Notes under the pieces: model-generated | Databases searched by the model: none | Told to the model about the DNA's origin: nothing | What the model saw: only the letters and a program-made list of their open reading frames with translations | Program-made: the position numbers and the translations under genes | Assembly (NCBI GenBank): GCA_951406725.2 | Contig: OX597820.1 | Span: 67,146,001-67,210,000, forward strand | Origin: Octopus vulgaris | Lineage: Eukaryota | Reading direction: 5' to 3' | DNA length: 64,000 bases | In this document: positions 13,705-63,953 of the stretch, piece by piece | Position numbering within the stretch: position 1 is the first letter of the stretch | How the letters are laid out: every line of letters begins with the position of its first letter

Positions 13705-13884
13705 GGGGGAGAGTTCACGAAAAAAACAACTGACGAAGACAGGTGGTGTAAAAAACAAACAGGTGTATTAGTATAATGCTCAGGAATAGAAAAAGTCTTT
13801 TACGTTTCGAGCCTACGCTCTTCTACAGAAAGGGACACAGAAAAAAAACAAGGAGAGAAAAAAATGTGTGTAGTGACTACCGAT
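13705..13884 (-). mobile_element. Short HHR-bearing Penelope-like element, copy A, inside (TA)n
   Basis: Homologous to 35373-35617, 50829-50990 and 63771-63953; flanked by (TA)n on both sides. Confidence 0.75.
13797..13832 (-). ncRNA. Minimal hammerhead motif with variant core CUGUAGA
   Basis: cttt-CTGTAGA-a-gagc-gtag-gctc-GAAAC-GTA-aaag; stems I and II pair perfectly. Confidence 0.7.
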
Positions 13885-14639
13885 ATATATATATATATAT
13901 ATATATATATATATATATATATATATATATATATATATGTGTGTGTGTGTGTGTGTGTGTGTGTGTGTGTGTGTGTGTGTAAATATGTGTATGTGTCTGT
14001 ATTTGTGTCTCCCATCACCGCTTGACAACCGGTGTTGGTGTGTTTACGTCCCCATAACTTAGCGGTTCGGCAAAAGAGCCCGATAGAATAAAGTACGATA
14101 CTTAAAAAAATAAGTCCTGGAGACGCCTTGTTTTTCTACTAAAATTCTTCAAGGCGGTGCTCCAGCATAGCCACAATCAAATGACTGAAACAAATAAAAG
14201 AATAATTAAATGTTATCAGAAATTGTTAAAATATTTTGTGTATTATCGAAGTGTAACCAATTTATTGCACATAAACTTTAACAAGATCTTATATGGACCC
14301 ACTCAAGGGCCCTATGGTCCTCAGTTGGGGACCACTGCTCTATACGGCCTCTCACCTTGATCGTCGTAGCAACTAAATCTACACTAAAGACGAGTCAATG
14401 GGGGGAGGACTTCAAATTGGTTGTTCGGCCTGCTAGAAATAGCAGCTAAATTTCGCTGAAATCGCCGTATCAGGACAAATACTTCCCGACGACAAGTACC
14501 CCCTAGGACAACGGCTGCAACACTAAAAGAAGCCCTTATGTAGTTGCTGCCTGTTGATTGTAACTGCCAGATTTGAAACAACGAAATCCATCATCATCAA
14601 CATCATCATCATCATCATCATCATCATCATCATCATCCT

Positions 14640-14855
14640 TTCTACCAAAGGCAGAAAAACCTGAAATTTGTGGTGGGGAAAGGGGACTAGTCGATTACAT
14701 CGGCCCCAGGGTTTTACTGGTACTTAATTTGGCGAGTCCGAAAGGATGAAAGGCAAAGTCGACTTCGGTGAAATTTGAAACCTAGAAAGTAGTGACGGGC
14801 GAAACACCACTAAGCATTTCGTCCAGCGTGCTAACGATTCTGCCAGCTAACCGCC
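14640..14855 (-). mobile_element. SINE family A within (CAT)n
   Basis: Reverse complement of the family A motif (GAAAGGATGAAAGGCAAAGTCGAC), flanked by (ATC)n. Confidence 0.75.
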
Positions 14856-15791
14856 TTTCATCATCATCAATATCATCGTCATCATCATCCTCATCATCAT
14901 CATCATCATCATCATCATCATCATCATCATCATCAACATTATTATCATCGTCATCATCATCAACAACAACAACAGCAACAACAACAAAATCCCAGACATT
15001 ACTGTCTTGAGTGCTAGGGCTGACGGGGCTGGTTACCCACTTTCCCTGGCTTATAGGTGGCCGAGATCACAACACTCCATCCCTCACCCCACCCCACCCC
15101 ACCCTGAACGGGACACCAGTCCTTCGCAGGGTTATCTCATTTACAAGTGAGTAGAGTAGATCAACATAAAATGAAGCGTTTTGATTGAGAACACAACAAC
15201 ACACTGCCCGATCCGGGAATTGAAACTACGATCATGCGATCGTGAGCGCAACACCTTAACCACCATGTCGTGCACCATCTTTAAATCAGGTAAGCCGAGC
15301 TTGTGAGCTTTACATTGATCAATGCCGTTAGCATATATATATTTCCAACCAATTTCTTACTGCCTTTGAAGCTCGCTGCATTAAACCATGTTAGTATTAC
15401 TAATATGCACTAAAAATAAAAGCTATGGTTAGTAAAATTGATCGAACGAAAGATTCGATCAGTTATTCTTGTGCAATAAGATTAATCAATTAAACTTGAT
15501 CAAAGCGACCACCGCCACCAACCACTATCAACACCACCATAGCCAACGCCATCACCACCAGCACCACTATTACCACCACTATCAACAACAGCAACGACGA
15601 TGACGATGACGATGACGACAGCGACAAGGAAACAAAGGAGTTTCTATGTGGTTTATTTGCTTTTAGAAATAGTAGCTAAATCTCCCTCAAATCATGCTGA
15701 AGCGTCTTTAAAAAGGGAAGAAAGAACACAAGTACCTGAAAAAAAAAAACTAGTTAGTATGGTCATGGTGGGAAGGTCTTTGATCAGTGTC

Positions 15792-16282
15792 TGCTCGATT
15801 GGGGCTGGCTTTGGACTGAACACCAACAACAAAAACGGACTAAAAAGAAAGCTTACGTGGTTGATCAAGTAGCTAGAAATAGCAACCTCAAATTACACAC
15901 GATTGTATTCAAGAAGGGCATGTTGGATCATGGGGTTCTAGATTCATAGGAAAAATGCTCGATCGGGGCTAGCTTTGGACTGAACACCAACAACAAAGAC
16001 GGACTAAAAAGAAGGTTACGTGGTTGATCAAGTAGCTAGAAATAGCAACCTCAAATTACACACGATTGTATTCAAGAAGGGCATGTTGGATCATGGGGTT
16101 CTAGATTCATAGGAAAAATGCTCGATCGGGGCTAGCTTTGGACTGAACACCAACAACAAAAACGGACTAAAAAGAAAGCTTACGTGGTTGATCAAGTAGC
16201 TAGAAATAGCAACCTCAAATTACACACGATTGTATTCAAGAAGGGCATGTTGGATCATGGGGTTCTAGATTCATAGGAAAAA
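15792..16282 (+). repeat. Tandem repeat, 3 x 163-164 bp, derived from a dispersed (AAC)n-ending repeat
   Basis: Units start TGCTCGAT at 15792, 15956 and 16119 and are nearly identical. Confidence 0.93.
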
Positions 16283-16354
16283 TACAGAAAAGCCATGGTT
16301 AGAATGCTTTTGATCATACGTCTTCTCAATAAGAGCTAATCTGGGGCTAATTCT

Positions 16355-16965
16355 TTTCTACTCTGGGCACAAGGCCCGAAATTTTGGAGGAAGGCGCCAG
16401 TCGATTAGATCGACCCCATTACGCAATTGGTACTGAATATATCGACCCCGAATGAATGAAATGCATAGTCGACCTCGGCGGAATTTGAACTCAGAGCATA
16501 AAGACAAACGAAATAACTCTAAGCATTTCGCCTAGCGTGCTAACGTTTCTTATTTCTTTACTGCCCACAAGGGACTACACATAGAGGGGACAAACAAGGA
16601 TACACAAACGGATTAAGTCGATTATATCAACCTCAGAGCGTAACTGGTACTTATTTAATTGACCCCGAAAGGATGAAAGGCAAAGTCGACCCCGGCGGAA
16701 TTTGAACTCAGAACGTAGCAGCAGACAACATACCTATTTCTTTACTACCCACAAGGGGCTACAGAACATGACAAACAAGGACAGACACGCGGATTAAGTC
16801 GATTATATCGACCTCAGTGCGTAACTGGTACTTATTTAATCGACCCCGAAAGGATGAACGGCAAAGTCGACCTCGGCGGAATTTGAACTCAGAACGTAAC
16901 GGCAGACAACATACTGCTAAGCATTTCGCCCTGCGTGCTAAAGTTTCTGACAGCTCGCCGCCTTT
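16355..16965 (-). mobile_element. SINE family A with triplicated central segment
   Basis: GTCGACC(T/C)CGGCGGAATTTGAACTCAGA occurs three times; the head ends CAGCTCGCCGCC. Confidence 0.85.
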
Positions 16966-61839: not shown

Positions 61840-61990
61840 TATCCTTTCTACTATAAACATAAGGCCTGGAATTTGGGAGGATGGATTAGTCGGTTACATC
61901 GACCCCAGTGTTTCACTGGTATTTAATTTTTCGACCCTGAAAGGATGAAAGTCAAAATCGACCTCGGCGGAATTTGAACTCAGAACGTGA
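61840..61990 (-). mobile_element. SINE family A, 3' part
   Basis: GAAAGGATGAAAG...CGACCTCGGCGGAATTTGAACTCAGAACGT. Confidence 0.75.
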
Positions 61991-63246
61991 AACCACACAC
62001 ACAGATATCGACACCGCCATGCACCATGCATCTATGACAATGTGTTTCTTGCAGAAAAGTCTAACTTCCTGTTTCCCGGCATACCTTCGTCCTGGTAACC
62101 CAAAATAACACTGCGTCTGTTTGTTTTCTTTGGTTCAGCTTTACAATATTTACACATTTAAAAGGTTTCCTTAAACAATATCATTGGCTATTTGGATATT
62201 TTAGCATTACGTTCAGTTCTTATCTTTTGTCCCCCATTTTTTCTTCTTTTTTATGTACTCAGTTGCTTGGGTGAATGTTATGTCTGTGTGTGTGTGTGTG
62301 TTTGTGTGTGTGCGTGTGTGTGTTTGTTTGTTTCTGTTTGTACGTGTATATTTACATACAAGTATACATAAATGATTAAATATGTATATATGCGTACACA
62401 CACACACACACACATACATGTATGCATAAGTATAACCGTTTGCATATATATTGTGTACGTGTGAGTGTGTGTGTGTATGTGTTTGTTGTGTTTGCACACA
62501 CTGATTTAATCGTAGATATATATGGGCTGTGTATGCACACGCACACACATACACACACACACACACGTATACATGTATATATATATATATATATATATAT
62601 ATATATATATATATATATAATATACATATATATATATATATATAATAAATATGACTATATGTACATATATATGTATACATACACACACACACTCACACAC
62701 ACGCATTCGCGCGCACACACACACACACACATATATATATATATGAAGAGAGAGAGAAATGAATAGATTTGTATCCGTTTTTGTGAGTGTTTCCATATTT
62801 ATATACATACATATATATGTATGCATGTATGTGTGTGTTTGTGTATGTGTGTGTGTGTGTGTGTGTTTGTTTAAATAACCTAGAGGAGTTACATAAACAA
62901 ATCTCGAATGGAAAAACATATTGGCAAGAATGGATACAAAAGGCGTAAAATGTACTATTTGGAAGAATCGATCTGTCCACCATTTTACTGCCAGCTTTAC
63001 TATGTACCAGATTAGGAAGCATTATCCATCCCACAACTAGCTTTAACCTTTAATAATAGTCATTATTTAACTATCTTTCGGTGTATACGTGCGTGTGTGT
63101 TTTTACGCAGAAGGGTGTATAAAGGTTTAATTATACGCATTGTTAGCTGACTTGGGACCAAACACTGAACAAAAATTACTCTCGACGCTTAATCTATATC
63201 CTAAAAATCTTTGTCAGCTGATCGCCAAGCTTGTTTAGAGACTTTA

Positions 63247-63286
63247 CTACACTGATGAGGTCTAATAGACCGTAACATGTTCATAG
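63247..63286 (+). ncRNA. Decayed hammerhead motif
   Basis: ctaca-CTGATGA-ggtc-taata-gacc-GTAAC-AT-GTT-catag. GAAA has become GTAA, and the stem I changes fit CpG decay. Confidence 0.55.
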
Positions 63287-63488
63287 CTGCTGTGCCTTGT
63301 CTACGAACAACAGAAGTTCCTACCTCCACCCCAAGTGCATAAGTTTACTTTTCATAGATTTAAATCTTTTTTTTATTATCTCCCCCTTCTCTAGGTGAGT
63401 TTACTAACAATTACCACTCGGTTTTCTGTATATTTCGTTAAGGAGGAAATTTTGAGTTACATATTGTTTGTGGAAAAGCATATATATA

Positions 63489-63707
63489 CAGTAATCCCGC
63501 GCCATATCGCGGTTCACCTATCGCGGTTTATTATTTAAGCTTACGTCGATTCCTCCGTGGTGTTGTTTTGCATTTATAATAAAATACATATATACAAATT
63601 ATAAAAATAGTTAAAATATACAATACAGTACTGTTTTTACTTCGCGGATTTTCACCTATCGCAGTGGGTTTCGGAACGTAACACCCGCGATAGTCGAGGG
63701 ATTACTG
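63489..63707. mobile_element. Tigger/pogo-type MITE
   Basis: TIRs CAGTAATCCCGCG and CGAGGGATTACTG; TA at the left flank. Confidence 0.82.
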
Positions 63708-63770
63708 AATATATATATATATATATATATATATATATATATATATATATATATATATATATATATATAT

Positions 63771-63953
63771 ATTCGCCATGATAGGTCACTAGCCACTACA
63801 CATTCTTTATTTTCTCTCCTTGTTTCTTTCTGTGTTCCTGGCTCGAAACGTTAAAGACTTTTTCACTTTCCGAACGTTATACTAATACATCTGTTTGTTG
63901 TCTACACCACCTGTCTTCGTCTTTTGTTTTTTTGTTGTTTTTTTAATTTTCAC
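63771..63953 (+). mobile_element. Short Penelope-like element, copy D, with the HHR 5' core deleted
   Basis: Reverse complement of copies A and B. Reads TGTGTTCCT|GGCTCGAAACGTTAAAG, so CTGTNGA is missing. (TA)n on both sides. Confidence 0.75.

Follow-up and report, generated by a model that had tools for sequence, protein, structure and literature searches.

The window analyzed here is a 64,000-nucleotide (nt) stretch of the Octopus vulgaris genome (contig OX597820.1, positions 67,146,001 to 67,210,000) that contains four copies of a short non-coding element and one more distant relative (Table 1). Three of the copies encode a hammerhead ribozyme motif in which the adenine expected at core position 6 (A6) is replaced by uridine (U6), and the elements themselves are almost certainly 5′-truncated 3′ ends of a Penelope-like element (PLE), judging from the longer copies described below. 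The U6 core is real, lineage-wide and probably derived; motif and element class are both known, and the core itself is an apparently new variant. Sequence inspection located all five elements at the places given in an earlier note on this DNA, with pairwise identities of 73–83% among the four family members and BLAST E-values of 1e-12 to 1e-51 within the window. The place given for the element at 50829–50990 was right and its extent was not, as the homology continues for about 17 nt more on the 5′ side and about 3 nt more on the 3′ side.

Table 1. Elements of the PLE families in the window and one example of the hammerhead block (coordinates in nt of the window).
Location	Strand	Feature	Details	C3	U6
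13705..13884	-	3′ end of putative Neptune-type PLE, 5′-truncated, A7 subfamily	TA repeats on both sides	13828	
13797..13832	-	Minimal type I hammerhead block	Stem I, CUGUAGA, bulged A, stem II, GUAG loop, GAAA, ACGU palindrome		13825
35373..35617	-	5′-truncated 3′ end, G7 subfamily	Core CUGUGGA	35493	35490
50826..51007	-	5′-truncated 3′ end, older C7 subfamily	Core CUGUCGA	50944	50941
53175..53378	+	3′ end of sister PLE family	A6 core (CUGACGA, at 53250); loop II of 3 nt; stem I GUUU/AAAC		
63771..63953	+	Copy closest to G7 subfamily	Between TA repeats; 17-nt deletion at 63839/63840		

The core string CTTT-CTGT(A/G/C)GA-A-GAGC-loop-G(C/T)TC-GAAACGT(A/T)-AAAG, as first proposed, can be read in all three minus-strand copies. 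Compared with the core consensus CUGANGA...GAAA...UH, these copies carry U at position 6 and match at the other core positions; the core aligns gap-free to the A6 relative, ruling out a register shift or an insertion in place of a substitution. The architecture is that of a minimal type I hammerhead with stems I and II, a bulged nucleotide and a palindromic, loop-less helix III, and stem II of the 35373..35617 copy holds one G-U pair. By standard hammerhead numbering, the predicted cut in the 13797..13832 block would fall between 13801 and 13800. The earlier proposal that helix III requires two copies to form is supported: the helix is a self-complementary ACGU in the three U6 copies, and in the relative the palindrome is broken at 53274 to give ACAU. 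The canonical CTGACGA core and the GTTT/AAAC stem I of this relative were correctly described, but the element is a member of a separate sister family, only a minority of which has the canonical core. In the plus-strand family copy, a 17-nt loss removes the CUGUNGA box entirely, along with the 5′ half of stem II; an independent short deletion of the same parts is found at locus L097, and both copies keep GAAACGU. An Rfam scan of the window gave no hammerhead among the 150 listed of 239 matches, all below the gathering score, and those listed were almost all microRNA models driven by microsatellites.

A genome-wide census of the 2.8-Gb genome was made with one exact pattern in which position 6 was varied, so that copies with a further mismatch go uncounted and the figures are lower bounds. 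Of the 19,410 copies matched, 18,607 have U at position 6, 553 have C or G (C in 91 of the first 100 listed, by hand count) and 250 have A. The reversed control pattern has no genome matches for any variant, placing the U6 count far beyond chance. U6 is thus a lineage-level natural variant that stayed mobile, as had been suggested from the window, and coincidental decay of three copies is ruled out. A loop T-to-A change, used as a control for T-to-A at position 6, occurs in 164 copies, which puts the A6 count near what decay after insertion would produce; its excess over the control leaves room for a few old A6 relics. A hidden A6 master was considered and rejected, as the 26 A6 copies examined are spread over four subfamilies, mostly carry the N7 nucleotide of their own subfamily, and have an above-average mutation load; tallies of A6 among the collected copies are inflated by the deliberate fetching of such copies. 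The search for other, unrelated U6 families was also unproductive, the first 100 of 590 looser-pattern matches being nearly all single mutants of the U6 PLE family. At N7, the first 100 listed U6 copies carry U (40), A (27), C (22) or G (11), again by hand count. Two A6 motifs with a GUGG loop and a stem I 3′ strand of AGGG were also observed 4,157 nt apart at L238 (3720 and 7877), with no PLE protein match between them.

The earlier note asked whether longer copies join a Penelope open reading frame (ORF) or form tandem arrays, and both are the case. The best 30 matches to the 35373 copy share from ~150 to more than 1,000 nt of upstream sequence, and the longest copies pass from the 3′ end via a 600–900-nt low-complexity 3′ untranslated region into sequence coding for a reverse transcriptase (RT) and a GIY-YIG endonuclease. 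Copies of this G7 subfamily at L043, L045, L053 and L055 continue into the ORF. The 13705–13884 copy has 40 genomic matches at 92–95% identity and one at 85%, and the long copy of this set (L025/L297) also reaches the ORF; for the subfamily of the 50826..51007 copy, whose best relatives are 84–88% alike, L313 makes the connection, to the C-terminal end of the endonuclease. Of 20,322 candidates in a protein search, 117 were scored, and many of them have open frames of more than 1,000 codons. U6 lies downstream of the ORF in 12 of 12 long-ORF loci fetched and also upstream in ten of them, while 30 other protein-found loci comprise 26 with U6, none with A6, one with the core deleted and three with no motif in the flank. 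Intact young partial tandems have a unit of ~4.48 kb with CUGUUGA in the repeats; direct repeats of 663–1,583 bp that are 97.2–99.8% identical occur in four loci (five of the 12 were self-compared), and L119 is a 2.2-unit tandem with three hammerheads.

The parent ORF of ~1,080 codons encodes an RT, a CX4CxxC linker and a GIY-YIG domain. In the 1,082-residue ORF of L116, RVT_1 is detected above the cut-off (E 1.4e-7), and GIY-YIG falls short of the Pfam cut-off (E 0.006) with its motif residues visible; homologues carry PF00078 and PF01541. Recognizable motifs include PADKGG (DKG), YIDD, the linker CSRPRCRTC, and CxxC..H..H (CCHH) in the C-terminal endonuclease. A single RT and GIY-YIG ORF together with partial tandems forming pseudo-long terminal repeats identify an endonuclease-bearing PLE, and the linker, CCHH and DKG features point to the Neptune type, an assignment made by features as the tree described below holds no named Neptune references. 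A short TA run in L116 (2710–2719) marks the junction of the repeat 3′ end with the next unit, where dispersed copies end, and might pair with TA targets in priming; the predicted cut of L116 is at 2606/2607. The L237–L242 pairs, guessed to be tandems from their coordinates, enclose no ORF of the U6 or sister families. L237 (4080–5300) belongs to yet another Neptune-like PLE family, the third, which is A-rich and has 28% identity across the region compared; its hammerhead-like motif has the known U3-A8 covariation, and an inverted 5′ piece is present.

The ends of the copies are consistent with target-primed reverse transcription into TA repeats, as the earlier note had proposed. TA or TC/GA repeats abut the 3′ ends of four of the five window elements, the exception being the 50826..51007 copy, which has no TA tract, and the 5′ ends differ. 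Of the first 44 listed U6 sites, 40 were examined, with four near neighbours skipped; their 5′ ends lie 7–1,820 nt upstream of the core with a median of 76 nt, 26 within 150 nt and two beyond 700 nt, and share no common boundary; TATATA is present in the 3′ stretch of 30 of the 40 by hand count. The joining of copies to an RT and GIY-YIG ORF and the continuous distribution of 5′ ends together indicate that the window elements are truncated ends of an autonomous element.

Of 255 copies collected by fuzzy motif match, 239 could be placed in the sister family or one of five U6 subfamilies. None of the five lacks U6, and the youngest intact copies carry it as well. Across the five U6 consensuses, 34 of the 36 hammerhead positions are invariant, compared with 16 of 50 on the upstream side and 53 of 82 on the downstream side (Fisher test, p 1.4e-6 overall and 5e-4 against downstream alone), and flank identity between the subfamilies is 60–90%. 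Only N7 and H17 vary within the 36-nt block. All five consensuses keep C3, G5, G8, A9, G12, A13, A14 and a non-G nucleotide at 17, and the two core CpGs decay in single copies and hold in every consensus. Contigs from four public runs (four organism labels) placed on L116 show block variants of at least 5% only at N7 and H17, offering weak support as the table is incomplete, with only one of the known N7 alternatives appearing in it. Between families, stem I covaries, with CUUU/AAAG in the U6 family and GUUU/AAAC in the sister.

Relatives outside the family carry other nucleotides at this position. Among 80 related metagenome loci, 62 gave no motif and the 18 plus-strand motifs comprise 15 with canonical U4 and A6, one with G6, one with C4 and one with A4, with no U6 among the 18; the minus-strand control over the same loci gave five motifs. 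The C4 motif with a 6-bp stem I (L175, 2928) and the G6 motif (L162, 1982) belong to PLEs of other organisms and, as single copies, may reflect decay. In a tree of the RT region (41 rows, residues 561–961), the U6 copies and the sister copy from this genome form one clade (100/100) among A6 relatives. This nesting suggests that A6 is ancestral and that a single A-to-U change likely occurred in the U6 lineage. The sister family is ~51% alike to the U6 family outside the motif and has 12,734 exact genome matches. By hand count, its first 100 listed copies include 73 with CCGA (U4C), 23 with CUGA and four others, and U4C makes up 61–64% of summed contig depth in each of the four runs. C4 predominates among the longer sister copies, which extend into a related ORF (56% identity across residues 561–961 for L287). 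Both abundant families have therefore altered the U4-G5-A6 turn.

We favor, as a moderately probable reading of these patterns, a hammerhead with U fixed at position 6 that acts as a slowed ribozyme, its fold still under selection and some cleavage retained. The 3′ ends of the subfamilies lie 93–103 nt downstream of the predicted cut, implying that every motif-bearing insertion would have been copied from RNA that was uncut at this site or re-ligated. In the proposed course of events, a tandem is transcribed, the element protein nicks a TA repeat, and reverse transcription would start 93–103 nt downstream of the predicted cut and proceed through the uncut hammerhead, usually stopping within 250 nt beyond it. 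Since RNA cut at the hammerhead could not template such copies unless re-ligated, slow cutting would cost little and may help. The motif may cut rarely, as a dimer formed via the ACGU palindrome and probably with the help of the element protein, and such rare cutting could trim the transcript or bring it to unit size.

Published work on related hammerheads provides a framework for this proposal. The 3′ ends beyond the cut site match the behavior reported for a green anole PLE, in which reverse transcription starts internally, cutting by the hammerhead requires protein, and insertion in vitro is not impaired when the hammerhead is mutated (PMC11167929). PLE minimal hammerheads with a canonical core are described as cutting weakly and only as dimers (PMC4209133). 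A natural A6C hammerhead keeps low activity and natural U4C variants retain some (PMC3088659), and A6C works well in Mn2+, which largely restores its activity (PMC7151607). In a pairwise mutant scan, all CUGA-turn mutants had low activity except the C3-G8 swap (PMC9901934). It is possible, though speculative, that the independent changes of the uridine turn in two sister lineages (A6U and U4C), with the catalytic guanines and fold kept, reflect selection for a ribozyme that stays uncut until released by the element protein or a metal ion; U6 would then be a natural protein-gated core making a contact that no structure has so far shown.

Several observations weigh against a slowed ribozyme. Stem II and loop II are invariant along with the core, with no covariation within the U6 lineage, and recognition of the sequence by a protein fits this equally well. 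The constraint test covers only five related subfamilies whose copies were gathered by fuzzy motif match, the place of the sister within the clade is unsettled (81/92, on a long branch), and the modelled L116 dimer gains no stability over a pair of monomers (-12.9 versus -14.8 kcal/mol). Folding models did not separate the slowed, non-catalytic and compensated readings. Two candidate inhibitory pairings were rejected: some subfamilies are predicted to pair U6 with A15.1 as a special lock, yet in most of them the palindrome is also sequestered when position 6 is A, so that the effect is not specific, and the downstream GAGCG as a partner of stem II is absent from predicted minimum-energy folds.

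Less likely, though still a credible alternative, is a U6 motif that no longer cuts and is kept as a structural or sequence signal, recognized by the element protein for internal priming or acting within the repeat as a promoter or in splicing. Conservation of the whole 36-nt block at sequence level, loop included, agrees with such a signal, as do the independent U4 change in the same turn of the sister family, the dispensability of cleavage for insertion in vitro (PMC11167929), and the low activity reported for turn mutants (PMC9901934). However, the changed sites N7 and H17 are those that a working hammerhead tolerates, the residues of the catalytic core being kept, and natural A6C and U4C motifs are not inactive (PMC3088659). 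The minimal insertion template of the anole element also lies within the first 172 nt of its ORF, the whole repeat not being needed (PMC11167929).

Full activity of U6 in its own context, through a new contact by the GUAG loop II, a metal ion or a protein that replaces the lost adenine, appears unlikely. The GUAG loop is invariant alongside U6 in all five consensuses, and the Mn2+ effect on A6C (PMC7151607) shows one way in which activity at a changed position 6 can return, but a systematic scan turned up no double mutant able to rescue the turn (PMC9901934). A6 and the loop II T-to-A change occur together in nine of the first 100 loop-mutant copies (two being one inverted pair) versus 1.3% expected, as would follow from compensation; these are scattered single copies, however, on several subfamily backgrounds (for example L239 and L243–L245) and under no selection, and A6 copies are more mutated overall, a load that explains only part of the co-occurrence.

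A separate non-autonomous family of retrozyme- or short interspersed nuclear element-like units mobilized in trans, of which the earlier note had raised the retrozyme-like form, agrees with the short upstream reach of most copies and is nevertheless very improbable and already largely refuted. ORF-linked copies occur in each subfamily and intact coding copies carry the same core, the 5′ ends are continuous with no fixed unit, copy ends do not coincide with the cut site, and in L022, L142, L144 and L154 microsatellite sequence lies between neighboring short copies, which are not arranged head to tail; the absence of a coding parent and the defined head-to-tail unit that characterize a retrozyme are not found here. 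Finally, although Naiad PLEs proliferate without canonical hammerheads (PMC8557442), a neutral relic in which U6 hitchhiked in a master copy can be dismissed as extremely improbable, as 34 of 36 positions, CpGs included, are unchanged while the flanks diverged by 10–40%.

Other repeats share the window with these elements. Inverted CUGACGA...GAAA strings at 22836 (-) and 22921 (+), ~85 nt apart, lie within a hairpin-forming stretch and possibly represent another repeat family. A 241-nt inverted repeat, 95% complementary with arms 224 nt apart (20580–20820 and 21045–21285), resembles a miniature inverted-repeat transposable element. Further short interspersed repeats directly adjoin two of the elements (14000–14100 and 35620–35800), and homologous arms recur at 25546–25775, 31367–31596 and 43764–43987.

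A natural A6U hammerhead was not found in a full-text literature search, the scope of which did not extend to the PLE-hammerhead survey of Lunse et al. 2017, Repbase, Dfam, the figure content of PMC3088659 or preprint supplements. A6 is present in all of the 44 rows compared from the alignment in the PMC4209133 supplement and in the motif table of PMC8557442, and both descriptors require it. Searches with a descriptor requiring CUGANGA miss the whole U6 family, so ribozyme censuses of such genomes undercount. Hammerheads are reported to be near universal in PLEs with a C-terminal endonuclease, poor cutters in vitro, and dispensable for insertion in the one reconstituted system (PMC11167929). 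The intact, recently active U6 element, at more than 18,000 sites, combines a change at a position marked as important by mutagenesis with a motif that is otherwise almost frozen, and with the natural U6, C4 and canonical alleles one can ask directly whether selection acts on cutting or on the fold alone.

The closest known counterparts are the minimal hammerhead ribozymes (min-HHRs) of metazoan PLE repeats (Cervera and de la Pena 2014, PMC4209133), which likewise reside in the PLE repeat with a 4–5-bp stem I, an extra residue separating position 9 from 10.1, G10.1-C11.1, a palindromic 15.2–16.2 and no loop III, in mostly solitary and truncated copies. In contrast to the U6 found here, A6 is present in all 44 alignment rows compared, none of them cephalopod, and is required by the min-HHR descriptor; stem II is 4 bp here versus the longer stems of the S. 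mansoni min-HHRs. The parent element shares with Neptune-clade PLEs (Craig et al. 2021, PMC8557442) a GIY-YIG domain after the RT, DKG, a CX2-5CxxC linker (of which Nematis PLEs have a reduced form), CCHH, partial tandems and microsatellite targets, a likeness of features as no named reference is in the tree, and differs from them in the non-canonical hammerhead core of an intact, recently active family. The A6C hammerhead of phage Bcep176 (Perreault 2011, PMC3088659; Naghdi 2020, PMC7151607) also occurs naturally with a pyrimidine at position 6 and an otherwise intact core, whereas the octopus motif has U in place of C, is loop-less and putatively dimer-dependent, and is fixed in a lineage of more than 18,000 copies as opposed to one locus. 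Like the green anole Poseidon element PAc (Frangieh 2024, PMC11167929), the U6 family has insertions ending downstream of the cut, an apparently unprocessed RNA template and AT-rich targets; the PAc hammerhead, however, has been assayed, is protein-assisted and overlaps the start codon, while the U6 hammerhead lies ~750 nt upstream of the putative start. Non-LTR retrozymes (Cervera and de la Pena 2020, PMC7229834; Li et al. 2026, 10.64898/2026.07.22.740005) are likewise short non-coding repeats with type I hammerheads and kinship to PLE repeats, but consist of tandem 150–450-bp units with canonical cores, whereas the octopus copies are dispersed single truncated ends of a coding element.

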